A stretch of DNA of 58,965 bases from Patescibacteria group bacterium (GCA_038078555.1 JBBTYQ010000001.1:1-58965), one strand, 5' to 3'. Positions 5,332 to 56,552 are shown, numbered from the stretch's first letter. Notes: generated from the letters alone by a model not told the origin. Made by a program: numbers and translations.

Positions 5332-6606
5332 CTATATTTTCAATATTTCTTCAAATTTTTCCTCTTCTTTAAAAGGCCCGATTATCGCCAAATTAAGTTT
5401 TTCATTTTTAAAAATATCTTGAGCAACCGCCATAATCTCCTCTGCCGAAACAGCTTGAATTTTTTCCGCCAACTCCTCTGGGCTAATGAGCTCTCTGGTT
5501 AAAATTTCCTGACCGCCGTAAAAACTGGCAATTTCATCCGATGTTTCCAAAGAAAGCATCAAATTGCCCAATAAATGATCTTTTGTTTTTTTAAGTTCCT
5601 TATCTCCAACTAAATCCTCAGTCATTTTCTTAAGCTCTTCAATAGTTGCAGAAATAACTTCTTTTATCCTTTTATTATCGGCGCCGATTAAAGCCACCAA
5701 ATAACCGTGGTCGGTGAATAAATCAGCACTTGCCCAAGCATAATAAGCCGCCCCCATTTCTTCTCTTATCTTTTGGAATAATCGAGAGCTCATACTACCG
5801 CCAATAATATGAGATAAAACTTGAAGCGCATACTTTCTTTTGTCAAAAATATCATAAGCTCTAACGCCTAAAATTAAATGCGTCTGGTCTGACTCTTTAT
5901 GTTTTAATAAAACCTGAGAGTTTTCTTGAGATTCCTTGGTTTTAATTTTCTGAATTTTTTCATTTATTTTTATTTCGGAAAAGGCGCTTTTTATTTTTTC
6001 AACTGCTTCTTCGTTAAATTTTCCGGAAACAACTATAATTGTTGACGAAGCCAAGTAATGCTCGTTTTTGTATTTTAAAAAATCTCCCGAATTGATTTTT
6101 TGCACTGTTTCTTTCGTTCCTAAAATATCCCAGCCAGCCGGCTGGTCTCCATAAAGAAGTTCTGTCCAAATATCCCACACATACCGTTTTGGATCGTCTC
6201 TGGTCATATTTATTTCTTCAATAATAACGCCTTTTTCTTTTTCAATTTCTTTTTGGTCAAAAACTGAATTAAGATACATATCGGAAACAATATCAAGCGT
6301 TTTATCAAAATGAATCGGTAAGGTCTTAACCCAATAACCGGTATATTCATGGCTGGTAAAAGCGTTATATGACGCGCCAAGTCCATCAAGCTCGGAAACA
6401 ATATCTATCGCGCGCGGCCGCTTTGTTGTGCCCTTAAAACACATATGCTCCAAAAAATGGGAGATGCCGTTAATTTCTTTAACTTCGTATTTTGAACCGG
6501 CTTCAACTAAAACAAGCACTGTTGTTGAAAAACTATCGTTTTTTGGCGCTAAAATTATACGCAAGCCGTTATCTAAAGTTATTTTGTTGAATTTCTCCAT
6601 TTTCAA
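5332..6606 (-). CDS. M16 family (pitrilysin/insulinase-like) zinc peptidase
   Basis: Inverted zinc motif HFLEHMCFKGT (HxxEH) near the N-terminus. The 424-aa length is typical of M16B. Confidence 0.85.
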   Translation of the reverse strand: MKMEKFNKITLDNGLRIILAPKNDSFSTTVLVLVEAGSKYEVKEINGISHFLEHMCFKGTTKRPRAIDIVSELDGLGASYNAFTSHEYTGYWVKTLPIHFDKTLDIVSDMYLNSVFDQKEIEKEKGVIIEEINMTRDDPKRYVWDIWTELLYGDQPAGWDILGTKETVQKINSGDFLKYKNEHYLASSTIIVVSGKFNEEAVEKIKSAFSEIKINEKIQKIKTKESQENSQVLLKHKESDQTHLILGVRAYDIFDKRKYALQVLSHIIGGSMSSRLFQKIREEMGAAYYAWASADLFTDHGYLVALIGADNKRIKEVISATIEELKKMTEDLVGDKELKKTKDHLLGNLMLSLETSDEIASFYGGQEILTRELISPEELAEKIQAVSAEEIMAVAQDIFKNEKLNLAIIGPFKEEEKFEEILKI

Positions 6607-7904
6607 TCAGTTAATTTTTGAGTTAAATAATTTTTTAATTCGGATATTTTTATCCTTTCTTGAGCCATAGTATCCCGATTTCTAACTGTAACATCGTTAT
6701 TTTCCAAACTATCAAAATCTACTGTTATGCAAAACGGCGTGCCGATTTCATCTTGAGAATAATAGCGTTTTCCGATATTGCCTCTATCATCCCAGACAAC
6801 TTTAAAATCTTTGCGTAAATCATCATAAACATTTTTTGCCATATTTGATAAATCAGGTTTATTGGCAAGCAAAGGAAAAACCGCTGCTTTGTGCGGGCTT
6901 AAATTATAAGCTAACTTCAAGACTACTCTGCCTTCTTCCTCGCTATATGCCTCAAGAAGAACCGCAAGTAATGTCCGGTCAACTCCAAAAGTCGGCTCAA
7001 TCACATGAGGTAAAAATTTATCGCCTGTAATTTGGTCGGAATAATTCAATTCAACTCCGCTTTGCTCAGAATGATTCTTCAAATCAAAATTAGTCCGGTA
7101 AGCTAAACCATAAAGCTCATCTAAACCAAATGGAAATTTATATTCTATATCTATTGTGCGCTTGGAATAATGAGCGCGCTCACCATCAGGAATTTCGTGA
7201 AAGTTAAGGTTTTTCGCTTTAATGCCTATTAATTTCATCCAATTCTTCATCTGACTGAGCCAATGGTCAAACCATTTTTTCCACTCGTCCTCGCGGATAA
7301 AATATTCTATTTCCATCTGCTCAAATTCTCTGGTTCTGAAAATAAAATTTCCCGGAGTAATTTCGTTTCTAAACGCTTTACCTATCTGTGCTATGCCAAA
7401 AGGAATTCTAGGATGAAAACTATCGATAATATTTTTAAAATTAACGAACATTCCCTGAGCGGTTTCCGGACGCAAATAAGTGAGTCCTGTATCATTTTCA
7501 ACAGGACCAAGATAAGTTTTCATCATGGTATTAAACTGCCGCGGCTCTGTAAGCTCTCCGCCGCAAACAGGACAAATTTTCGGATTTTCTAATTTATCCG
7601 GCCTGAATCGATTTTTGCATTTTTTACAATCGGACAGAGGGTCGGAAAAATTTACTTCGTGTCCAGAAGCCTGCCAAACCTTGCGATTCATAATCAAAGC
7701 GCTGTCTATGCCATACATATCATCGCGCTTATAAGTAAAAATCTTCCACCAAAGATTTTTTATATTATTTTTAAGCTCAACGCCTAAAGGGCCGTAATCC
7801 CAAGAATTCGCCAAGCCGCCATAAATTTCCGAGCCGGGATAAATAAAACCCCTCCTTTTGCACAAACTGACGATTTTATCCATTAAATTATCAGAATTTT
7901 TCAT
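6603..7904 (-). CDS. glyQS: Glycine--tRNA ligase (homodimeric class II type)
   Basis: IYPGSEIYGGLANSWDYGPLGVELKNNIKNLWW and class II motifs. The track start at 7928 is TTG. The first ATG (MKNSDNLMDKIV) is at 7904. Confidence 0.93.
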   Translation of the reverse strand: MKNSDNLMDKIVSLCKRRGFIYPGSEIYGGLANSWDYGPLGVELKNNIKNLWWKIFTYKRDDMYGIDSALIMNRKVWQASGHEVNFSDPLSDCKKCKNRFRPDKLENPKICPVCGGELTEPRQFNTMMKTYLGPVENDTGLTYLRPETAQGMFVNFKNIIDSFHPRIPFGIAQIGKAFRNEITPGNFIFRTREFEQMEIEYFIREDEWKKWFDHWLSQMKNWMKLIGIKAKNLNFHEIPDGERAHYSKRTIDIEYKFPFGLDELYGLAYRTNFDLKNHSEQSGVELNYSDQITGDKFLPHVIEPTFGVDRTLLAVLLEAYSEEEGRVVLKLAYNLSPHKAAVFPLLANKPDLSNMAKNVYDDLRKDFKVVWDDRGNIGKRYYSQDEIGTPFCITVDFDSLENNDVTVRNRDTMAQERIKISELKNYLTQKLTD

Positions 7905-7992
7905 AAATAGTTTTTTTGAGTATAGCAAAGCTGGAGTAAAAATAAAGCCCGTTTTGGGCTTTTCGCTTATAATCGTTTCCTGAAATTTTTCT

Positions 7993-47434: not shown

Positions 47435-48151
47435 TTATTGACCAATCGCTTGGTCAATAATAGGTTTTAATTGTTCCATCGGGTAAGCTCCGCCAACAAC
47501 ATATTTTGTCCCGTTTTTTCCAATAACAATGCTGTAAGGCGTGCCTCGGGCGCCGGAACTGGTCGCATCTTTTATTTGCGCTTCTATCTTACTATTATAT
47601 TTTTCGCTATTAAGGCAATTTTCAAATTGGTTTTTATTTAAGCCGATATCTGCCGCAATGTTAGGAAGCTCTGTCAAATTAATTTCATCATTAGACGGCG
47701 TAACTTCAAAATATCTGTCAATAAAAGCCCAAAATTTTTCGTTTCCGCCAAGCTCAGCCGCGCATTCCGAAGCCAAAGCCGAGACCTTAGCTTTTGTGTG
47801 TAATTGCTCTAAAGGATAATGGCGATAAATCCAGGCAACTTTTCCGCCATATTGATTTACAACCTGTTGCATTGTCTCGTGATAAATTTTGCAATATGGA
47901 CATTCTAAATCAGAAAATTCAATAACTTTAACCGGCGCGTTGGCATCGCCTCGTATATGGTCTTGCGCTGAAACAGACTTAACATTTTCTTTATCAGGCG
48001 AAGTTATTTCCTGTTTTTGATTTGCTTCGTTTCTAGCCTCAAAACCATTCAAGCCGCTGGTGTAAATCCATGAACCGCCAATAAGCAAAGCCGCAATAAT
48101 AATGCTTGCAGGCAATAAATAATCTGATTTCTTATTTTCTTGATTTTCCAT
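47435..48151 (-). CDS. DsbA-family thiol:disulfide oxidoreductase, membrane anchored
   Basis: N-terminal TM and CPYC active site within FSDLECPYCKIYH. Confidence 0.85.
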   Translation of the reverse strand: MENQENKKSDYLLPASIIIAALLIGGSWIYTSGLNGFEARNEANQKQEITSPDKENVKSVSAQDHIRGDANAPVKVIEFSDLECPYCKIYHETMQQVVNQYGGKVAWIYRHYPLEQLHTKAKVSALASECAAELGGNEKFWAFIDRYFEVTPSNDEINLTELPNIAADIGLNKNQFENCLNSEKYNSKIEAQIKDATSSGARGTPYSIVIGKNGTKYVVGGAYPMEQLKPIIDQAIGQ

Positions 48152-48175
48152 TAGAATTACATTATAGCATATTTT

Positions 48176-48214
48176 ATAAAAAATAAAAAGCCCCGCATAT
48201 TGTTCCTGCGGGGC
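48176..48214 (-). terminator. Intrinsic terminator of orphan paralogue A
   Basis: Minus strand reads GCCCCGCA-loop-TGCGGGGC followed by TTTTTATTTTTT. Confidence 0.8.
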
Positions 48215-48236
48215 GTATTCTTTAAAACTTAAAACG

Positions 48237-49025
48237 TTATTGCGCGTTATAGCTTATAGGATAAAACACTATATCTTTTCGCGCGCCAGACTTTCTTAAA
48301 ACCGCCGTAGTGCCTGCTTCAATGTTGTTGAAGCAAGCCAGGCAATTTGACTCTAAAAATTTCGTTTTCTTTTTAGTCCTTAAGTTTAGGAAAAACGCTT
48401 CGCCACTTTCTAGCGTCACGGCCAGCGTATTGCCATAAGGTTTGTCAATAAACCTTATGTCTTCCTTTGTTTCCCAAAGCTCTTCCGAGCGCGAAACCCA
48501 GCAAAGAGCGCCAACATCTTTAAGATTGATTTTCCATATCTTGTTTTCTGAAACAAAGATAAGCTCGTTCTCGTTTAAAAATCTGATGCTTTTAGCATAA
48601 ACATCGGGAATTTTGACGAGCTCTTCTTTTTTTTCAGCGCCAAGATAATAACTGGAAAATCCCTCCTCAAATGTGGAGTTTCCCGGAAAATAGACCATCG
48701 ATTTTTCCCAAACCTTCATTGTTTTTACAAGCGTCTTAATTACTTTTGCCATTAAGACGCTTAAAGGATCTGGCGCGGTTAAGGCAACAACATAATTTTT
48801 GCCCTTCCAATGCGCGGCATTTATCCAAGCTGAGCCAGTCCGCACTTCATTGCAAAGATGAACTGGCACGACAAGCTTACGACCAATGGGATAAATATTC
48901 TGCGCAATGGTGGCAAAAATTGCCTTGCCCCGGCTGGATATTCCAAAAGCAATATCCAGTTTTGGATTGACTCCTTTCGAAAGATTTTCCATCGAAACTT
49001 TTCTCGTAACCACTTTCGCATCCAT
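48237..49025 (-). CDS. Uncharacterised 262-aa protein (paralogue A of a two-member family in this window)
   Basis: Intact ORF with SD AAGGGGGAAG. It is collinear with 53004-53828, with KPYGNTLAVTLESGEAFFLNL vs RPEGNLLAISTESDVPYYVDV both at residues 195-215. LDIAF/LDIEV lie near the N-terminus and VFYP/QFFP near the C-terminus. Confidence 0.7.
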   Translation of the reverse strand: MDAKVVTRKVSMENLSKGVNPKLDIAFGISSRGKAIFATIAQNIYPIGRKLVVPVHLCNEVRTGSAWINAAHWKGKNYVVALTAPDPLSVLMAKVIKTLVKTMKVWEKSMVYFPGNSTFEEGFSSYYLGAEKKEELVKIPDVYAKSIRFLNENELIFVSENKIWKINLKDVGALCWVSRSEELWETKEDIRFIDKPYGNTLAVTLESGEAFFLNLRTKKKTKFLESNCLACFNNIEAGTTAVLRKSGARKDIVFYPISYNAQ

Positions 49026-49186
49026 TTCATACTTCCCCCTTTTTTTATTTTCCCAGCTTTCGCCAAGTCGTTTTAAATTTTAAATTTAAATATGTCAAAG
49101 AACTGCAAGATATCTCAGTCTATGGATTTTTTTTATTATGTCAACTCTGACAAAAAAGAATCCGCTTATTAAAAGACGCGCTAATC

Positions 49187-49288
49187 TCAAAAAATTACAA
49201 AAAAAACGGGGAGGGAAAATTTTCCCCTCCCCTTGCTTCGGCAGCCATCGCTGCAATGAACTACTCTGTCAAACCCCCTATCTCTCAT
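49187..49288 (-). CDS. Possible 33-aa leader ORF or small protein reading through a strong hairpin
   Basis: AAAGGAGGTG, then 7 nt, then ATG. Hand translation gives MRDRGFDRVVHCSDGCRSKGRGKFSLPVFFVIF with a stop at 49187-49189. It is not in the track (under 60 aa). Confidence 0.25.
   Translation of the reverse strand: MRDRGFDRVVHCSDGCRSKGRGKFSLPVFFVIF
49208..49232 (-). terminator. Strong GC hairpin GGGGAGGG-AAAATTTT-CCC(C)TCCCC with a T8 tail on the minus strand
   Basis: Read directly. It is flanked by A8 on the plus strand, which is a T-run on the minus strand. Confidence 0.6.
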
Positions 49289-49438
49289 AAGAGCACCTCC
49301 TTTCTGATATTATTCATTTTTTTATCTTCTACTTATATTATATCATGCTTGTCAAGACCATTATTATTATTTACAATAAGCTTTTCAGAATTCGTAATTC
49401 AGTTTGTAATTTTTAACCTTGTTAAGCGTCTTAATATT

Positions 49439-49960
49439 ATGAAAAAACCAATGACAAATGAAAAGCTGTTTATTTCGGCTTACGACGAAATTTCTGCGCC
49501 TCTCTTAAGGCACATTTATTTCAGAGTTAATAACCAGCAGCTGGCCGAAGACCTGCTTCAGGAAACATTTTTTAAAACCTGGCAATATATTGCGAGTGGC
49601 GAAAAAGAAATCAAAAGCCTTAAAAGCTTCTTATATTCTGTGGCTAATAACTTGGTCATTGACCATTGGCGGCAAAAACCTAAAGCTCCGGTTTCCTTGG
49701 AAAACGAAAACATGGAAGCGGAAAATTTTAACGATGAAACAAGCCCGGAAAAAAATTTTGACCGCTTATTTTATAAAGAATTGGTCCAAAACCATTTAAG
49801 CGAACTCGGCGATGATTACAAGCAAATCCTGCTTTACCGATATGTTGATGATTTGACCATAAAGGAAATTTCGGAAGTCATTCGAAAAACGCCCAATAAT
49901 ATCAGCGTTATGATCCATCGAGCCTTAAAAATGCTTAAGGAAAAAATAAATCATGTTTAA
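49439..49960 (+). CDS. ECF-type sigma-70 family RNA polymerase sigma factor
   Basis: Region 2 LLQETFFKTWQYI...DHWRQ and region 4 YRYVDDLTIKEISEVIRKTPNNISVMIHRALKMLKE. The true start is MKKPMTNEKL at 49439. Confidence 0.85.
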   Translation: MKKPMTNEKLFISAYDEISAPLLRHIYFRVNNQQLAEDLLQETFFKTWQYIASGEKEIKSLKSFLYSVANNLVIDHWRQKPKAPVSLENENMEAENFNDETSPEKNFDRLFYKELVQNHLSELGDDYKQILLYRYVDDLTIKEISEVIRKTPNNISVMIHRALKMLKEKINHV

Positions 49961-51143
49961 AACAATTAAAACCGTCAGACAACTGAAAAAATTGAAAAAA
50001 TTTCCGGTCAATGACCAGTTTTTAAAGCTTCTCAAATATAGGCTGGAAGCTTATATGGCTCTTAATCCGTCTCAAAAATCCGTCATAAAATCCAATAGCT
50101 TCCTGTTTGCAAAAAGCTCTTTTTTCCCGCTTACCAGATTAGCATCCTTGCCTCTGGGAATCGCTTCAGCCTTATTGATTATATTGACTAGCGGCGGAGC
50201 GGCTTTTGCTTCTCAAAATAGTTTGCCCGGAGAAGCTCTTTACCCGGTAAAAAAATTGACTGAAAATACCCGCTTAGCTATTACCAGCAACCAAGAATCT
50301 AAAGTTCGATTAGAGGTAAGTTTTGCCGCAAAACGAATTTCTGAAATAGAAAAATTAATTGAAAAAAATGGGCCGGAATCTGAACAAATAGAACCAACTG
50401 TTTTGGCTTTTGAGGCACACTGGCTCCGCGCGGCAGAACTTATAAAAGAAAAGGGCGATAAAGGAGATAGTTCAAGCGCTCTCGTTAAAAATATTAACGA
50501 TTTCCTGTCTGCTAATAAAGAATCTCTTAACCAAACGCTTAAAAATTACGAAAGCTTAGCCGAAGAAAAAGAGAATGACTTAAAAACGCAAATTATTCAA
50601 GCGCAACAATCAAGCGATGATTCCAAAACTAACGCTCTCATTGACGACCTTATAGAAATAAAAAGCAGGAAGGACTTAATTAAATTGAAGAAAAAGGATT
50701 TTGGCGATGTTTTTGACGATAATTCTCCGAAGGAATCAATTGAAACCGAATCAAAAGCAGAAGAATATTCCAGAGAATATTTATTAAAAGAAATCAATAA
50801 TGATTATTACGATGACGACGATGACAAATATAATAACTTAAATAATGATGCAAACGACGACATATATATCAGCAAAGAAAATAGCAACGATGATCGCGAT
50901 AGTGATTATGACTATTCAAGAGAACGCAGCCGAGATATTCCCGACTTTGAAAATGACACCAGTTCTGCAACAAGTTCTACTAAAAAAGATAGCGAAGTAT
51001 TTTCTGATAAAACCGATAAAAATAATGAAAATCAGGCTTGGCTTTATAAAATTTCGGAGAAAGAATTTAATAAATTAAAAGAAGAATATTCTTACGAAAA
51101 GGAATTGGAGCAAGAAAAAGAAACGTACAGAGAAAACTACTAA
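49953..51143 (+). CDS. DUF5667-like putative anti-sigma / sigma-associated membrane protein with an Asp/Asn-rich tail
   Basis: It overlaps the sigma gene by 8 nt. It has a TM (LASLPLGIASALLIILTSGGAAFA), then LPGEALYPVKKLTENTRLAIT and helical repeats. The tail reads DYYDDDDDKYNNLNNDANDD. Confidence 0.6.
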   Translation: MFKTIKTVRQLKKLKKFPVNDQFLKLLKYRLEAYMALNPSQKSVIKSNSFLFAKSSFFPLTRLASLPLGIASALLIILTSGGAAFASQNSLPGEALYPVKKLTENTRLAITSNQESKVRLEVSFAAKRISEIEKLIEKNGPESEQIEPTVLAFEAHWLRAAELIKEKGDKGDSSSALVKNINDFLSANKESLNQTLKNYESLAEEKENDLKTQIIQAQQSSDDSKTNALIDDLIEIKSRKDLIKLKKKDFGDVFDDNSPKESIETESKAEEYSREYLLKEINNDYYDDDDDKYNNLNNDANDDIYISKENSNDDRDSDYDYSRERSRDIPDFENDTSSATSSTKKDSEVFSDKTDKNNENQAWLYKISEKEFNKLKEEYSYEKELEQEKETYRENY

Positions 51144-51160
51144 GAAAAACCGTTAAAAAG

Positions 51161-51610
51161 TTAAAAATCCAATTCTTTTATTTCTTTCTTGAGTTTTATT
51201 TCAAAAATCCATAAGACAGTAAAGATGAAAAGAGTAAGCAAAGTTGCAAACACGGCTATAGTATAAAGCTTAAAACCCACTGCCATGCCGATACCGGCAG
51301 AAACCCAAAGACCGGCAGCAGTAGTAAGTCCCATAACTTTTGATTCTTTAAAAATAATAAGTCCCGCTCCAAGAAAACCAATACCAACGATAATTTGCGA
51401 TGCTACTCTGGAAGGGTCAAAAACAGTAACGCCCAAATAACTCTCATTGGCGATCTTTGAAATAATTATAAATAAAGCTGAACCCAAGCTGACTAAGGCA
51501 AAAGTGCGCAGTCCTGCGGTTTTCCCGGCGATTGCCCGCTCAATGCCCAAAAGCGACCCTAAAAAAGCGGCGATTAAAAGTTGCAAAAGAATCCATAAAT
51601 TTTGTTCCAT
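51161..51610 (-). CDS. mgtC: MgtC/SapB family membrane protein
   Basis: LQLLIAAFLGSLLGIERAIAGKTAGLRTFALVSLGSALF. Confidence 0.85.
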   Translation of the reverse strand: MEQNLWILLQLLIAAFLGSLLGIERAIAGKTAGLRTFALVSLGSALFIIISKIANESYLGVTVFDPSRVASQIIVGIGFLGAGLIIFKESKVMGLTTAAGLWVSAGIGMAVGFKLYTIAVFATLLTLFIFTVLWIFEIKLKKEIKELDF

Positions 51611-51645
51611 ACTTTTATTATAAAATGTTTTTTTTAAAAAACAAA

Positions 51646-52827
51646 TTAATCGCGTCCCTTATTTTTCCCAAAAACTCCTTTTTCTCTGGAAATCCGGCTT
51701 GATTTCAAAGCAAACCGGTGCGCCTCATCCCTTAATTCTATCAGAGTTTCAGTTATTGCTTCTGTTGATTCCTTAATTGATTTTTTGGTTTTTGCCGGAA
51801 AAACCAGCTTATCGCCGGCCAATTTGGAAATTCCCATTAAAGCAATATTAATATTTAAATCTTTCAGGGTTTTCTCAATATAATCAACCTGCGGTTTGCC
51901 GCCGTCAATCAAAATTAAATCAGGAAAAGGCCACTCTAAATGCTTAAATCTTCTGACAATTATTTCTTTTAAAGCCTTTAAATCATCTGACGCTGGCGCG
52001 TTTTTAATTTTAAACAACCGATAGCTTGCCTTATCCGGCTGGCCGGAAATAAAAACCGCAAGTGAACCGTAAGTTTCTCTGCCGGTCAAATGAGATATAT
52101 CATAACCTTCAATGCGGTTAAATTTAGCGTTCGTTGTTGATTCTTCTTTAGTAATCAAAGCCACGTCCTGAATATGTCGCAAAGCTTTGATTTTTTCCGG
52201 ATTTTCATATTTCAATTTTTCTATTAATTTTTTATGCTGGCCGGATAGCATCAAAATAATATTTTTTATATTTTTTTGATAATCGTTTTTTGAAATTGCG
52301 CCGATGCACGCTCCCGGGCATAATCCTATTTGATAATCAAAACAAGGTTTGCCTTGATTTGGCCGGCATGTGCCGTAAGGAAAAATCCTCCGGATTATTT
52401 TTAAAGCATTTTTAATTAAAGCCAGGCTGGTATAAGGACCGAAAACGTTAGCCTGACGAAAATAAAATTTTTTTAATTCTCTGCCTCTTAAAATAATCGG
52501 CCTGGGATAATCATTTTTTGAAATGACAACATATAAAAAAGAACGGTCGTCCTTCTCTTTAATATTATATTTGGGCCAATATTTTTTTATTAAATTTGCC
52601 TCAAGAATTATCGCTTCTAAAATATTTCCGGTTTTTTGATAATTTATTTTTGAAGCCAAATTTACCATCTCTCCTATTCTTTGATCTAAATTTTTTTGAA
52701 AATAATTTAATACCCTCTTTCTCAAAGAAATCGCCCGGCCCACATATAAAACTTTGCCTTTTTTATTGATAAAAAGATAAACTCCGGGGAGTAAAGGTAA
52801 TTTTTTGGCTTGTTCTATAAGCTTCAT
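51646..52827 (-). CDS. uvrC: Excinuclease ABC subunit C, compact form (no C-terminal HhH2 region evident)
   Basis: GIY-YIG domain LPGVYLFINKKGKVLYVGRAISLRKRVLNYF, the CFDYQIGLCPGAC motif, and the RNase H-like endonuclease region IEGYDISHL...LILIDGGKPQ. The ATG is at 52827. Confidence 0.85.
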   Translation of the reverse strand: MKLIEQAKKLPLLPGVYLFINKKGKVLYVGRAISLRKRVLNYFQKNLDQRIGEMVNLASKINYQKTGNILEAIILEANLIKKYWPKYNIKEKDDRSFLYVVISKNDYPRPIILRGRELKKFYFRQANVFGPYTSLALIKNALKIIRRIFPYGTCRPNQGKPCFDYQIGLCPGACIGAISKNDYQKNIKNIILMLSGQHKKLIEKLKYENPEKIKALRHIQDVALITKEESTTNAKFNRIEGYDISHLTGRETYGSLAVFISGQPDKASYRLFKIKNAPASDDLKALKEIIVRRFKHLEWPFPDLILIDGGKPQVDYIEKTLKDLNINIALMGISKLAGDKLVFPAKTKKSIKESTEAITETLIELRDEAHRFALKSSRISREKGVFGKNKGRD

Positions 52828-52910
52828 AAAGATATTTATAAAACAATTGGCTCTTTTATTCAAATTAGCGATCCTTTAAATATCTTAAAGTAAAAAGTTA
52901 TAAAAAATTA

Positions 52911-52948
52911 GAAAATAAAATACCCCACATCATATAGACTGTGGGGTA
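52911..52948 (-). terminator. Intrinsic terminator of orphan paralogue B
   Basis: Minus strand reads TACCCCACA-loop-TGTGGGGTA followed by TTTTATTTT. Confidence 0.8.
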
Positions 52949-52955
52949 GTATGAA

Positions 52956-52971
52956 AACCTTGGCGAAGGTT
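52956..52971. repeat. Hairpin repeat AACCTTGGCGAAGGTT (inverted partner at 53861-53874)
   Basis: The 12-nt core CCTTGGCGAAGG at 52958-52969 has its reverse complement CCTTCGCCAAGG at 53862-53873, so the pair brackets gene B. Confidence 0.7.
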
Positions 52972-53003
52972 GATTCTTAAAGCTTGAAGCTTTGAAACTG
53001 AAG

Positions 53004-53828
53004 CTATTGCTGGAGCTGGAACTGCTCGGCCGGGAAGAACTGTACCGCAGTCTCGTCCTTCTTCATGAGGGCAATGTTATTGCCTCTCACTCTGCCGATT
53101 AAAGCGGCGCCCCTGAACTCCTCGATGCCTTCGATGCCCTTGATCTGCTTCTTATTGCAGATCTGATTCTTCAGGCACTCGTTGACGTCGACATAGTACG
53201 GGACGTCGCTTTCGGTTGATATTGCAAGAAGGTTTCCTTCCGGCCTGCCGAGGTAAACGATCTCGCTGTTAGCCTTGGCCAACAGCTTGGCGTCTTGAAG
53301 CCAGTTTTTTGTCTTGGCTATGGAGGTCAAGGGGATGCTCAGAAGCTCCTTGCCATGGGTGAAGACAAGAATCTTTGCCAAAGCAATGATCCTTGCTGTT
53401 GAAGCCGATATGTAGCTTCCGCCCATCGTGGAAATCTCCTCTGGCTTTCCGGTTGCGCTGAAAAAGACGTTGGTCTTTTTCAAGAGCGTGCCCGCGGGAT
53501 ATAGCGCGTCTGTCTTTCCCTTGATATCCATGGCCTCTAAAATACGAGCCACGACAGACATCTCGGACTTGGTAAACAGCCCGAAAGTCTCGACTATCAA
53601 GAGATTCTCCTGCTTCTGAATACTCTTGATATGCGCTCCCGTGAAGCTTGCTTCTTCGAATGGCGCTCTGGCTCTCTCCTCGACCGACAGCGGCGTGTTC
53701 AGTTGCAGAACGGTCGCTGTGCCGTTATTGTTCACCTCGATGTCCAAACCGGCCTCGGTGTTTGTCGCGGCTATCTCCCGCAAGTTCCCTATGATCCTTT
53801 TTTCCACTATCAGTTTTCTCGGCTCCAT
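53004..53828 (-). CDS. Uncharacterised 274-aa protein (paralogue B), compositionally atypical
   Basis: Intact ORF with SD AAAGGAGAA. Hand counts give 30/60 G+C in lines 53041-53100 and 53281-53340, against 20/60 in the uvrC line 52501-52560. It is collinear with 48237-49025. Confidence 0.7.
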   Translation of the reverse strand: MEPRKLIVEKRIIGNLREIAATNTEAGLDIEVNNNGTATVLQLNTPLSVEERARAPFEEASFTGAHIKSIQKQENLLIVETFGLFTKSEMSVVARILEAMDIKGKTDALYPAGTLLKKTNVFFSATGKPEEISTMGGSYISASTARIIALAKILVFTHGKELLSIPLTSIAKTKNWLQDAKLLAKANSEIVYLGRPEGNLLAISTESDVPYYVDVNECLKNQICNKKQIKGIEGIEEFRGAALIGRVRGNNIALMKKDETAVQFFPAEQFQLQQ

Positions 53829-53949
53829 TCTTCTATTCTCCTTTTTTTGTTGTTTTTTTACCCTTCGCCAAGGGTTTTCTCAAAAATATGTAATATGTAA
53901 AGAGCTGATTGCTTTTCAAAAAAAATACGCCGATGAAAAGCGAAATTTA

Positions 53950-53978
53950 ATAATAGCAAAGTTTAATTTCTCTGTCAA
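53950..53978 (-). promoter_or_regulatory. Sigma-70 promoter TTGACA - 17 nt (ending TGC) - TATTAT driving paralogue B
   Basis: Minus strand: -35 at 53973-53978 and -10 at 53950-53955. Confidence 0.55.
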
Positions 53979-54026
53979 GGCCATAAACCTTATTATCAAA
54001 TAAATAAGCGACCTAGTTTTTATATT

Positions 54027-56552
54027 TTACTGTATTAAATATTCCTTTAAATATCTTCCCGTGTAAGAACCTTTTATTTTTATGATTTCCTCGGGCGTGC
54101 CTTTGCCGATAATCTTTCCGCCAGCTTCCCCGCCTTCCGGTCCAAGGTCAATGACATAATCCGCGGATTTTATAATATGCATGTTATGTTCGATAACCGC
54201 AATAGTATTTCCTTTATCCACCAGTTTATTTAAAACTTTAAGCAGCATTTCTATATCATAATAATGAAGCCCTACGCTCGGCTCATCAAGCAAATACATT
54301 GCTCTTTTGCCTAATGGATGAGTTAATTCTCGCGCCAATTTTATTCTTTGAGCCTCGCCGCCTGATAATGTAGTGGCTGATTGGCCTAATTGCAAATAAC
54401 CCAGGCCCACTTCTATTAAAACTTTCAGCTTGTCGGTAATCGTATAAAGCCCGTCAAAAAAATCTATTGCTTCATCAACCGTCATTTCCAAAATTTCATG
54501 GATGTTCTTGCTTTTATGCTTAACCTGAAGCGTTTCGCGATTAAATCTTTTGCCATTACAAACATCGCACTGGACAAGCACGGCCGGCAAAAAATGCATT
54601 TCCACCAGATTAAAGCCCGCGCCTTGGCAAGCTTCACATCTTCCTCCGCTGACATTAAACGAAAATCTTGAGGCGGTATATCCTTTAGCGCGAGACTCTT
54701 CCAAAGAAGCAAAAAAATCTCTGATAGGCGTAAAAATTCCCGTATAAGTTGCCGGGTTAGACCTGGGAGTCCGGCCAATCGGCGATTGGTCAACCATCAC
54801 CACTTTGTCTATATATTCAGTTCCTAAAATCTGGCTGACTCCTTCCAAAGGCTCGTTAAATCTGGCTTTTATTCTTTCCAAATTTTTATATAAAACATCG
54901 TACAATAAAGAAGATTTTCCGCTGCCTGAAACTCCGGTTAAGCAAATCAGTCTCCGCAGGGGAATTTCTACGTCTATGTTTTTTAAATTATTGGCTCTGG
55001 CTCCGATGATTTTTATTTTTTCCGTTTGCTTTGACCGCCTGATTTTTGGCACTTCAATTTTTTTCTCCCCTGATAAATACTTGAGAGTCAAAGATTTTTT
55101 GTTGATTGCTTGAGATTGTTTTACCCCGCCTAATAATTTTTTTATCTCGCCTATTGCCACCACTTCACCGCCATTTTTTCCGGCTAAAGGCCCCAAATCA
55201 ACCAGATAATCCGATTCATTAATCGTCCGTTCATCATGCTCTACGATAATTAAACTGTTGTTTTGGTCTTTAAGCGCTTTTAAAGTTTTTATCAGTCTTT
55301 CTGTGTCGCGCTCATGAAGCCCGATAGTCGGCTCGTCTAAAACGTACAAAGTTCCTGATAATTTCGAACCAATCTGCGAAGCCAATCTTATTCTCTGAGC
55401 CTCGCCACCAGATAATGTCTCGGCTTCACGATTTAAAGACAAATAATCAAGCCCGACCTCCAACAAAAATTCTAACCGACCGACAATTTCCTTTAAAACA
55501 TTCTGTGCTATTTTTCTTTCCCGCTCGGTTAAATTGTTTTCATATTCGGCAAAAAATTCATAAGCCTTATCAATAGTTAAGGCAGTGACTTCATGAATGT
55601 TTTTTCCGCCGATTTTTACAGACAAGGCTTCTGGCTTCAATCTTTTTCCCTTGCAATCCGGACAAATTGTGCCAAGAAACAAATCGGTTTTGCCCAACCC
55701 AAAACAAGTTTGGCACGCTCCGTAAGGGCTATTAAAAGAAAAAAGTCTTGGTTCAACTTCAGGAAAAGCGAAATTATCATTAGGACAAGTCCACTTAGAA
55801 GAAAGTAAAAGCTCAGTCTGATTTTTTTTATTTTCATTAAAAACCGCGCGTACTAATCCCTTGCCGTGATTAAGCGCGCCTTCAACCGCCTCAAAAATCC
55901 GGCTCTCATCTTTTATTAAAACCCTGTCAATAACAATTTCAATGGTATGCATTTTGTATCGGGAAAGAGGAATTTTTTCATGAAGCGAGTGATATTTTCC
56001 GTCAATTCTCGCTTCGGAAAATCCCAGAGAAAGAAAATCGTAGAGCAATTGGTAGTATTCTCCTTTTCGGCCGCGCACCGCTGGCGCCAAAATCAAAATT
56101 TTTTCCTCTTTTAACTCTTTGGCTTTATTAATAACAATATCAACTATTTCTTCTAACGAAAGTTTTTTAATTTTTACGCCGTCAAGCGGACAATAAACCT
56201 CGCCCAATCTCGCGTAGAGCACTCTTAAATAATCGTAAATTTCTGTAAGCGTGCCTACGATTGACCGCGGGTTATGAGACAAAGCCCGCTGATTAATGGC
56301 AATAGCCGGTGAAAGTCCGATAATTTCATCAACATCCGGACGGTCCATTTGACCTAAAAACTGCCTGGCGTAAGGCGATAAAGATTCAATATATCTTCTC
56401 TGGCCTTCGGCAAAAATCGTATCATAAGCCAAAGAAGACTTGCCGCTGCCGGAAACTCCGGTAAAAACTACCAGCTTGTTTTTCGGCAACTCCAAATCTA
56501 TATTTTTCAAATTATGCACTCGGGCGCCTTTTATAATTATTTTGTCCTCCAT
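54027..56552 (-). CDS. uvrA: Excinuclease ABC subunit A (compact, about 841 aa)
   Basis: IIIKGARVHNLKNIDLELPKNKLVVFTGVSGSGKSSLAYDTIFAEGQRRY, two ABC modules (LSGGEAQRI twice) and zinc-finger cysteines. The first ATG is at 56552; the track start at 56558 is TTG. Confidence 0.96.
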   Translation of the reverse strand: MEDKIIIKGARVHNLKNIDLELPKNKLVVFTGVSGSGKSSLAYDTIFAEGQRRYIESLSPYARQFLGQMDRPDVDEIIGLSPAIAINQRALSHNPRSIVGTLTEIYDYLRVLYARLGEVYCPLDGVKIKKLSLEEIVDIVINKAKELKEEKILILAPAVRGRKGEYYQLLYDFLSLGFSEARIDGKYHSLHEKIPLSRYKMHTIEIVIDRVLIKDESRIFEAVEGALNHGKGLVRAVFNENKKNQTELLLSSKWTCPNDNFAFPEVEPRLFSFNSPYGACQTCFGLGKTDLFLGTICPDCKGKRLKPEALSVKIGGKNIHEVTALTIDKAYEFFAEYENNLTERERKIAQNVLKEIVGRLEFLLEVGLDYLSLNREAETLSGGEAQRIRLASQIGSKLSGTLYVLDEPTIGLHERDTERLIKTLKALKDQNNSLIIVEHDERTINESDYLVDLGPLAGKNGGEVVAIGEIKKLLGGVKQSQAINKKSLTLKYLSGEKKIEVPKIRRSKQTEKIKIIGARANNLKNIDVEIPLRRLICLTGVSGSGKSSLLYDVLYKNLERIKARFNEPLEGVSQILGTEYIDKVVMVDQSPIGRTPRSNPATYTGIFTPIRDFFASLEESRAKGYTASRFSFNVSGGRCEACQGAGFNLVEMHFLPAVLVQCDVCNGKRFNRETLQVKHKSKNIHEILEMTVDEAIDFFDGLYTITDKLKVLIEVGLGYLQLGQSATTLSGGEAQRIKLARELTHPLGKRAMYLLDEPSVGLHYYDIEMLLKVLNKLVDKGNTIAVIEHNMHIIKSADYVIDLGPEGGEAGGKIIGKGTPEEIIKIKGSYTGRYLKEYLIQ

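Follow-up and report, generated by a model that had tools for sequence, protein, structure and literature searches.

Complementary hairpin elements in the 5′ and 3′ untranslated regions of a fast-evolving Patescibacteria gene family suggest end-to-end mRNA pairing

To our knowledge, bacterial mRNAs whose two ends base-pair are rare, and the documented cases, hbs and icaR among them, are a few genes studied one at a time. It is an open question how widespread such pairing is and whether it is selected, and the gene family described here bears on both points. In Bacillus subtilis hbs, the 5′ leader and the 3′ untranslated region (UTR) form a duplex of ~14 bp through which RNase Y cleavage of the leader is modulated (Braun, Durand and Condon 2017, PMC5737220). 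In Staphylococcus aureus icaR, a 3′-UTR segment pairs with the Shine-Dalgarno (SD) region in the 5′ UTR of the same mRNA and controls expression, with the involvement of RNase III (Ruiz de los Mozos et al. 2013, PMC3868564). Here we analysed 58,965 nucleotides of a Patescibacteria group bacterium (GCA_038078555.1, JBBTYQ010000001.1:1-58965; hereafter the window), which are the first 59 kb of a 243-kb contig from the 0.1 µm fraction of Hainich groundwater well H41, also represented in the metagenome-assembled genome (MAG) GCA_964355705.1. The window carries two members, A and B, of an unnamed protein family, and B is flanked by a hairpin element before its start codon and by the reverse complement of this element after its stop codon. 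The same pair accompanies most relatives of B. On balance, and with confidence a little above even, we favor the interpretation that the two elements act in the RNA as a conserved, hbs-like end-to-end pairing of 5′- and 3′-UTR hairpins. A 5′/3′ pair kept with compensatory changes across an orphan family at ~20-30% identity would be phylogenetic evidence for selected pairing, here in uncultivated Patescibacteria, where post-transcriptional control is almost unknown.

The B unit, a complete one, comprises the following parts (window positions):
53004-53828 (-), coding sequence (CDS) of paralogue B, 274 aa, flanked by uvrA and uvrC; open reading frame (ORF) call with a family profile match and an AlphaFold2 (AF2) model
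53860-53879 (-), 5′-UTR element, hairpin ACCCUU-GGCG-AAGGGU (ACCCTT-GGCG-AAGGGT at 53860-53875), whose segment GAAAACCCUUGGCGAAGG pairs in the prediction with the 3′ element; 28.1 bits to the covariance model
52953-52971 (-), 3′-UTR element, hairpin AACCUU-CGCC-AAGGUU, reverse complement of the 5′ element, 33 nt past the stop codon and upstream of the terminator; from the full-transcript fold
53950-53978 (-), promoter-like site TTGACA-17-TG-TATTAT with 11 of 12 matches, from a consensus scan only
52912-52946 (-), intrinsic terminator CCCCACA...TGTGGGG with a T-rich tail, read in the sequence and folding as a hairpin

If transcription starts from the promoter-like site, some 65-70 nt of transcript would precede the 5′ element. 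The motif CTTGGCGAA occurs four times in the window against 0.93 expected, and four or more copies appear in none of 100 shuffles. Two copies precede the ATG of A (49059-49067, minus strand) by 31 nt and that of B (53864-53872, minus strand) by 33 nt, the spacing given by the initial annotation of this DNA. A further copy (52959-52967, plus strand) lies in the B 3′-UTR element, between the B stop codon and the terminator, and had escaped that annotation, whereas the copy at 7807-7815 (minus strand) is a chance occurrence inside the ORF 6603-7928. The 5′-UTR element proposed to be common to A and B is real and, as described below, family-wide, but it is only half of a complementary 5′/3′ pair flanking the CDS. 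Among 48 window genes, B alone has a 5′/3′ complementary match containing G or C. A covariance model built from 20 sites recovers only three sites in the window, all next to A or B, with the next best at 17 bits.

The conservation of the pair was followed through the protein family. A and B had been annotated as collinear paralogues of an unnamed family, and BLASTP, shuffling and profile searches all agree with this, for a family of ~260 aa; the two ORFs were also recovered at the same coordinates and lengths. BLASTP aligns A residues 95-215 with B residues 92-215 (31.6 bits, E=1e-5, 19% identity), a score reached by none of 2000 shuffles of B (maximum 26.2). A hidden Markov model (HMM) built from 11 other members, with A and B left out, matches both over nearly the whole length (A, 1.1e-34; B, 4e-29) and has no further match among the 96 window ORFs. 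Most of the residue correspondences listed earlier are reproduced by MAFFT (VIKTLVKTM/VVARILEAM, YFPGNS/LYPAGT, KPYGNTLAVTLESG/RPEGNLLAISTESD and VFYP/QFFP), but the family alignment places LDIAF and LDIEV 2 residues out of register. Judged by these comparisons, we regard A and B as true, very diverged homologues in an unnamed family of groundwater Patescibacteria.

When 1.84 billion representatives were searched exhaustively by HMMER with an A+B profile, eight more proteins of 233-289 aa emerged (P0003-P0010, here P3-P10; E 2e-11 to 4e-4). Furthermore, a tandem second copy was identified at locus L015 (HMM E=1e-29), and a DNA motif search added L070 (Parcubacteria GW2011_GWD2_38_12) and L075 (Patescibacteria H51-bin136_1), giving a tiny family of about 13 members. 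Word-indexed homology searches with A, B and a 10-sequence profile returned the queries alone. No family match was obtained for A, B and nine relatives in Pfam, NCBIfam, PADLOC, PHROGs or PDB sequences (best E about 0.03-0.1, single members), and the NCBI records label the known members 'hypothetical protein'.

The flanks of every member were compared over 220 nt upstream and 200 nt downstream. The upstream motif has the consensus YGGCGAA(A)G within a palindrome, and the 3′ loop UUCGCCR is complementary to it. In the relatives the 3′ copy lies 8-31 nt past the stop codon, directly before a strong intrinsic terminator. The standard pair is present in B, P3, P4, P7, P8, P9, the L015 tandem copy, L070 and L075. 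In two distant members, P5 (CATGACTCGGC/GCCGAGTCATG, 11 nt, perfect) and P6 (GCGAAAAAGATT/AATCATTTTCGC), the local hairpins are lost and the complementarity has moved to new flanking sequence. A retains the 5′ copy alone and P10 has neither element, so that B and 10 of 11 relatives carry the pair. L070 and L075 were ascertained via the motif and P3-P10 via the protein profile only; since eight of the nine units recovered without recourse to the motif (P3-P10 and the L015 tandem copy) carry the pair, all but P10, the association of motif and family is not an ascertainment artefact. The initial annotation had named absence of the motif from related genomes as the finding that would speak against shared control; the motif is in fact kept in relatives from other genomes, and its hairpin stem covaries.

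The pair is also exclusive to the family. Exact 17-mer scans, which served as a negative control, hit 109 genome loci and 120 metagenome loci, mostly by chance, and only 2 of the 109 and 4 of the 120 are family loci. A family gene was found only where a convergent partner copy lies 500-1400 nt away, and the converse holds if both gene ends are on the contig. The scans yielded L070, L075 and a variant locus, L181, as the only additions. Rfam has no match in the window at the gathering score, a relaxed search of 47900-54300 (E up to 5) likewise gave no relevant family, and in 11 related loci it matches tRNAs only. The motif was also considered as a promoter -10 box. This was rejected: TTGACA lies 17-18 nt upstream of it in the members next to uvrA, but 23-24 nt upstream in A and B, the members next to GSDH have no such box, and the 3′ copy would be unexplained. 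By-eye inspection found no LexA (Cheo) box or ECF-type -35/-10 sequences.

Compared with hbs, the B-type unit has the same arrangement, with a long-range duplex predicted upstream of the SD on one side and upstream of the terminator on the other in a short monocistronic mRNA, and the conserved leader/3′-UTR complementarity reaches the hbs-type length of at least about 12-14 nt by sequence. The hbs duplex was defined experimentally in one gene, whereas the pairing described here is predicted, but conserved with covariation across a protein family of another phylum. In addition, the family partners each also form hairpins, with a nearly invariant core. The likeness to icaR is the pairing of 5′ and 3′ UTR within one mRNA. 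In contrast to icaR, the SD is not paired, as the family helix stops 20-30 nt upstream of the SD (GGAGG) in all units. The interaction of complementary hairpin loops also has precedents. In kissing complexes (ColE1 RNA I/RNA II, the HIV-1 dimerization initiation site (DIS)), such loops can nucleate pairing and extend to a duplex, and in the processing stalks of rRNA operons, the flanks of one long transcript pair and are cut by RNase III. The family shares with these systems the fully complementary loops, here of 7 nt, and differs in that its interaction is predicted, intramolecular and on an mRNA.

To quantify pairing, the 5′ elements, linkers and 3′ elements of 11 units were aligned. For the long-range helix, 80% of the cells are paired against 37-57% in slid controls, with a covariation of 0.163 versus 0.112 that 3 of 500 shuffles reach. 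For the two local hairpins, 77% of the cells are paired against 31-56%, with a covariation of 0.302 versus 0.175 that no shuffle of 500 reaches. Loop position 19/74 covaries between the two ends (CG in seven units, UA in two, UG in one), and its U-A pairs occur in two separate clades (B and P4). In minimum free energy (MFE) folds of whole transcripts (871-1036 nt), the 5′-3′ core helix is present in 11 of 11 units with a probability of 0.84-1.0. For B, both the MFE and the centroid structure of the full transcript pair the 3′ element with 53862-53879 at a pairing probability of 1.0.

These data were weighed against the view that the hairpins are independent, a 5′ stabilizer or protein-binding site and a 3′ pre-terminator structure that never pair, their complementarity being a by-product of common origin. 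The local-hairpin covariation does exceed the long-range covariation, the 5′ hairpin of the GSDH clade lies near the predicted 5′ end like classic 5′ stabilizers, and a short U-run follows the 3′ hairpin. Nevertheless, independent hairpins leave the covariation at loop position 19/74 unexplained, and whole-transcript folding favors pairing. The loops differ in RNA (GGCGAA and UUCGCC), so a single RNA-binding protein could not read both. P5 and P6 lose the local hairpins yet keep 11-12 nt of 5′/3′ complementarity on new sequence, which indicates that end-to-end pairing is the ancestral constraint. We thus consider independent hairpins unlikely.

Whether the elements act as RNA or as DNA can be judged from their stems. 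The initial annotation had left transcriptional and post-transcriptional control open; the covariation pattern favors RNA. The 5′ and 3′ stems of one unit differ and each is self-complementary, as in P4 (AUCUU/AAGAU versus ACCUU/AAGGU) and L075 (AUCCU/AGGAU versus UUCCU/AGGAA). Together with the near-invariant asymmetric center, this points to folded single strands rather than to an operator or to arms shared by a recombinase. Core mismatches (6 G.U versus 2 A.C) lean the same way but are weak evidence, too few to settle RNA versus DNA. An operator model would have a dimeric DNA-binding regulator, possibly the family protein itself, bind palindromes at both gene ends, perhaps with DNA looping. 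In its favor, both sites form palindromes (15-27 bp) that read alike on double-stranded DNA, which would explain their joint change, and the core is conserved far beyond pairing needs. Typical operators have conserved arms and a free spacer. The elements here show the opposite, with arms free to vary as long as they are self-complementary and an invariant asymmetric center. A site past the stop codon would also be unusual, P5 and P6 keep the 5′/3′ complementarity without palindromes, and the protein has no recognizable DNA-binding domain. Operators are, in our judgement, very unlikely.

A second DNA-level explanation is that the elements are recombination sites or terminal inverted repeats and the gene an invertible (phase-variable) or a mobile, exchangeable cassette. 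Inverted copies of 12-20 nt do flank the CDS, around a single gene and with an asymmetric conserved center as in recombinase core sites. The genomic distribution of the family could be read in the same way. In the window, B lies in the order uvrB, a 190-aa ORF, uvrA, B, uvrC and MgtC. A follows a divergent extracytoplasmic function (ECF) sigma factor gene with DUF5667 and is itself followed by DsbA-like, SHOCT and SHMT genes. Other members occur between uvrA and uvrC (P3, P7, P9 with the tandem copy, and L075, forming a clade with B), after tRNA_bind and GSDH (P4, P8, L070), between PspC and YbaB (P5, P10) and between TsaE and ArgRS (P6). The family is thus found in at least five contexts, with several copies in a genome (A and B; the L015 tandem pair). 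Positional orthologues are 23-36% identical beside neighbors that are 60-93% identical, and B is a 10-standard-deviation outlier in GC content at third codon positions (GC3).

On the other hand, all members are stand-alone genes amid housekeeping neighbors, and their positions are kept inside clades, with synteny held across saturated synonymous divergence (dS). The placement of B inside the uvr cluster, correctly noted before, is accordingly not idiosyncratic, since uvrA-X-uvrC (X, the family gene) is kept in at least five related genomes. All ~13 units and all replicate contigs show a single orientation relative to promoter, terminator and neighbors, and Pfam annotation of the neighborhoods reveals no recombinase or transposase; neither both orientations nor a nearby recombinase, as expected of an inverton, was seen. 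Apart from the inverted repeats, the marks of an insertion sequence were likewise absent, with no transposase in the family search, no target-site duplication, no dispersed copies, no homology break at the repeats and no direct repeat outside the inverted repeats of B. The promoter and the terminator are conserved even though they fall outside the repeats. In blastn of L005 versus L013, similarity extends through the intergenic region to the ATG, is lost across the CDS and returns after the stop codon, so the break is the CDS and not the repeats. A shared recombinase would also not require that the arms of the two sites differ while each remains self-complementary. REP/RAYT 'REPtrons' and insertion sequences with terminal inverted repeats similarly place a single gene between inverted hairpin-forming elements with conserved unpaired bases and covarying stems. 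The family protein differs in having no HUH/Y1 or DDE signature and no conserved H or Y columns, and the locus differs in having no dispersed element copies in 59 kb (three sites only), no target-site duplications and a conserved synteny.

The sequence divergence does not call for exchange either. Between P7 and L075, X has a nonsynonymous divergence (dN) of 0.22 and an omega of 0.17, compared with 0.029 and 0.04 for UvrA; between P8 and L070, the omega of X is 0.21. The dN excess of X over UvrA is steady, about 8-12 fold, at an omega of about 0.2. A hypervariable cassette swapped by recombination, suggested by identities of 23-36% beside neighbors at 80-93%, was rejected on these values, as rapid divergence in place suffices; the sequence data thus argue that the family CDS has diverged rapidly and in place. 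Collectively, DNA-level repeats appear quite improbable.

The GC3 of B is 0.69 compared with a mean of 0.34 (standard deviation 0.06) for 48 other window genes (z about 10), and the runner-up is A at 0.42. Since the GC content of B at first and second codon positions is host-like, the excess is confined to synonymous sites. High values recur in L070 (1017-1856; 0.64), P8 (L014:2878-3696; 0.59) and P4 (L006:1730-2599; 0.49), whose neighbors are at 0.31-0.36. Recent horizontal gene transfer was rejected as the source: the host-like positions apart, the excess is common to the orthologues P8 and L070, and as these are orthologous at saturated dS, the bias is maintained. The bias might stem from rare codons, from mRNA structure or resistance to RNases, or from biased gene conversion. 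The family is thereby defined as a new one that is often located at uvrA/uvrC, evolves fast and maintains a GC bias at synonymous sites.

Returning to end-to-end pairing, the mechanism that we propose would operate on a monocistronic unit composed of promoter, 5′ leader, 5′ hairpin, A-rich tract with SD, CDS, 3′ hairpin and intrinsic terminator. Consensus scans place the 5′ element after promoter-like sites and the 3′ element before strong intrinsic terminators, so both elements would probably be carried by one transcript. The 5′ loop YGGCGAA would meet the 3′ loop UUCGCCR in a loop-loop kiss, and, as the stems are mutually complementary too, this could extend to a helix of 13-19 bp that closes the ~0.9 kb mRNA into a panhandle. 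By analogy with hbs, the most likely outcome would be control of mRNA decay, in which both ends and a leader cleavage site might be shielded from RNases or presented to them. Pairing thus probably controls mRNA stability, and direct translational occlusion is unlikely because the SD is outside the helix. At about 30 + 30 nt, the module is compact and suited to reporter testing.

Several observations weigh against this mechanism. The transcription start sites, the 3′ ends and the presence of both elements on one RNA rest on consensus scans only. The GGCGAA core is nearly invariant although the proteins share only ~20-30% identity; a plain helix needs no such constancy, which suggests an additional sequence-specific reader, protein or RNA, for which the model has no place. 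The long helix also faces competition from the local hairpins, which the outer stem positions suit better, 15/78 and 29/64 being mostly unpaired in the helix. Nearest-neighbor folding leaves out co-transcriptional folding and translating ribosomes. The pair is absent from A and P10, so it is dispensable for some members. The covariation statistics are modest, coming from ~11 units in few clades, two of them (L070 and L075) motif-ascertained.

One conceivable reader of the loop is the family protein. For both A and B, the AF2 models (A, pLDDT 81 and pTM 0.80; B, pLDDT 82 and pTM 0.83) are nearly all beta, with about 19 strands. Foldseek searches with both models match exclusively beta-propellers at E 1e-5 to 1e-3, such as Campylobacter jejuni CJ1041C (22gw, of similar size at 263 aa), Escherichia coli YncE (3vgz), TolB and WD40 proteins. 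The TM-scores are merely 0.27-0.45 at 7-14% identity, whereas membership among propellers would call for a TM-score above 0.5 and recognizable blade repeats, so the predicted fold resembles a beta-propeller only generically. The motifs DPRLIVG, I+SIQ, AFFPA, NIR, DW, FLGRP and PVTLxSG are common to the family, and I, P, R and W residues are invariant in its alignment. The family thus encodes a fast-evolving, cytoplasmic protein whose predicted fold is generically beta-propeller-like. Phage or viral origin was rejected, with no tblastn match in 50,697 phage records and, in IMG/VR, one chance 17-mer match and no relative. We regard it as a rather improbable extension of the pairing model that this protein reads the loop YGGCGAA and binds the hairpins or the panhandle of its own mRNA, which, together with recoding towards GC-ending codons in AT-rich hosts, would produce a closed, RNase-resistant and self-regulated mRNA-protein particle. 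If true, it would be a dedicated device for long-lived or stored mRNA in ultra-small Patescibacteria, without a described counterpart.

The A unit departs from the B unit in its flanking parts:
48237-49025 (-), CDS of paralogue A, 262 aa; ORF call with a family profile match and an AF2 model
49052-49067 (-), degenerate 5′ copy CTTGGCGAAAG, predicted to fold locally as CUUGGC-GAAA-GCUGGG with a probability of about 0.75; 26.1 bits to the covariance model
49117-49144 (-), promoter-like site TTGACA-16-TAGACT, from a consensus scan
about 48185-48213 (-), intrinsic terminator CCCCGCA...TGCGGGG with a T-run and a 9-nt loop, read in the sequence

A second TTGACA is located at 49093-49098, 25 nt 5′ of the motif. 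No site complementary to the motif of A, with up to two mismatches, exists anywhere in the A transcript. The shared control suggested for A and B is therefore doubtful for A, with its degenerate 5′ copy, different fold and missing 3′ partner. The common motif reflects common descent and probably not an identical mechanism today. The description of A and B as self-contained units stands, both hairpin-plus-T-run terminators being readable; they escaped the consensus scan because their loops are longer than its 8-nt limit. About 60 nt upstream of the A promoter is a strong terminator-like hairpin (49208-49232, minus strand; GGGGAGGGGAAAATTTTCCCTCCCC, then T8) that is an orphan, as no minus-strand gene precedes it; it overlaps the 5′ region of the ECF sigma gene and may end a small antisense or leader RNA. 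For the ECF sigma gene itself (49256-49960, plus strand), the longest ORF encodes 234 aa with a hydrophobic N-terminal extension, compared with 169 aa and a start at ~49451 in the NCBI record, so its true start and 5′ UTR are uncertain.

Minor variations were observed around the relatives. In the Hainich MAG H51-bin136_1, a 314-aa ORF (L075:5702-6646) separates uvrA from the family gene, whereas uvrA adjoins B directly in the window. In the P6 clade, an AbiEii-family toxin gene (L247:4514-5290) lies 3.3 kb from the family gene, with no link seen. In the GSDH context, two genomes have a look-alike of the element (ATCTTGGCGAAGAGGAT, 21.7 bits to the covariance model) at homologous sites inside the GSDH CDS, just 5′ of the family gene (L006:1452-1479 and L014:2615-2642); it was rejected as a true element, being probably a coding coincidence (YLGEED). 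The contig of P4 ends in a second unit, of which the promoter and 5′ element (CCCGGCGAAGG; L006:2640-2766) begin about 130 nt past the P4 terminator. At L015, two complete units (256-1023 and 1274-2032) stand head to tail with uvrA on one side and uvrC on the other. In a population variant, L181 (reverse complement, about 1015-1020, versus L015:995-1023), the upstream tandem copy has lost its final codons and its stop codon through a deletion of 28 nt, so that the ORF runs into the 3′ element; this may represent decay of one tandem copy.

One further part of the B unit lies in its leader:
53905-53940 (-), hairpin with a U-run (GCUUUUCA...UGAAAAGC around U8), between the promoter upstream and the 5′ element downstream; obtained by folding, with a putative function only

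This region (53905-53945) is analogous to an extra leader that is conserved in the uvrA-clade relatives and precedes the 5′ element (L005:1010-1150, L013:300-440, L015:60-250 and 1090-1270, L075:6718-6890). The leader has no Rfam match. It consists of a TTGACA-17-TAAGAT promoter, a first hairpin H1 (GUUUUUGC...GCAAAAAC), a terminator-like hairpin H2 with U6 and a CTTTGACA box 17-18 nt before CGGCGAA, and it could be an attenuator or a small RNA.

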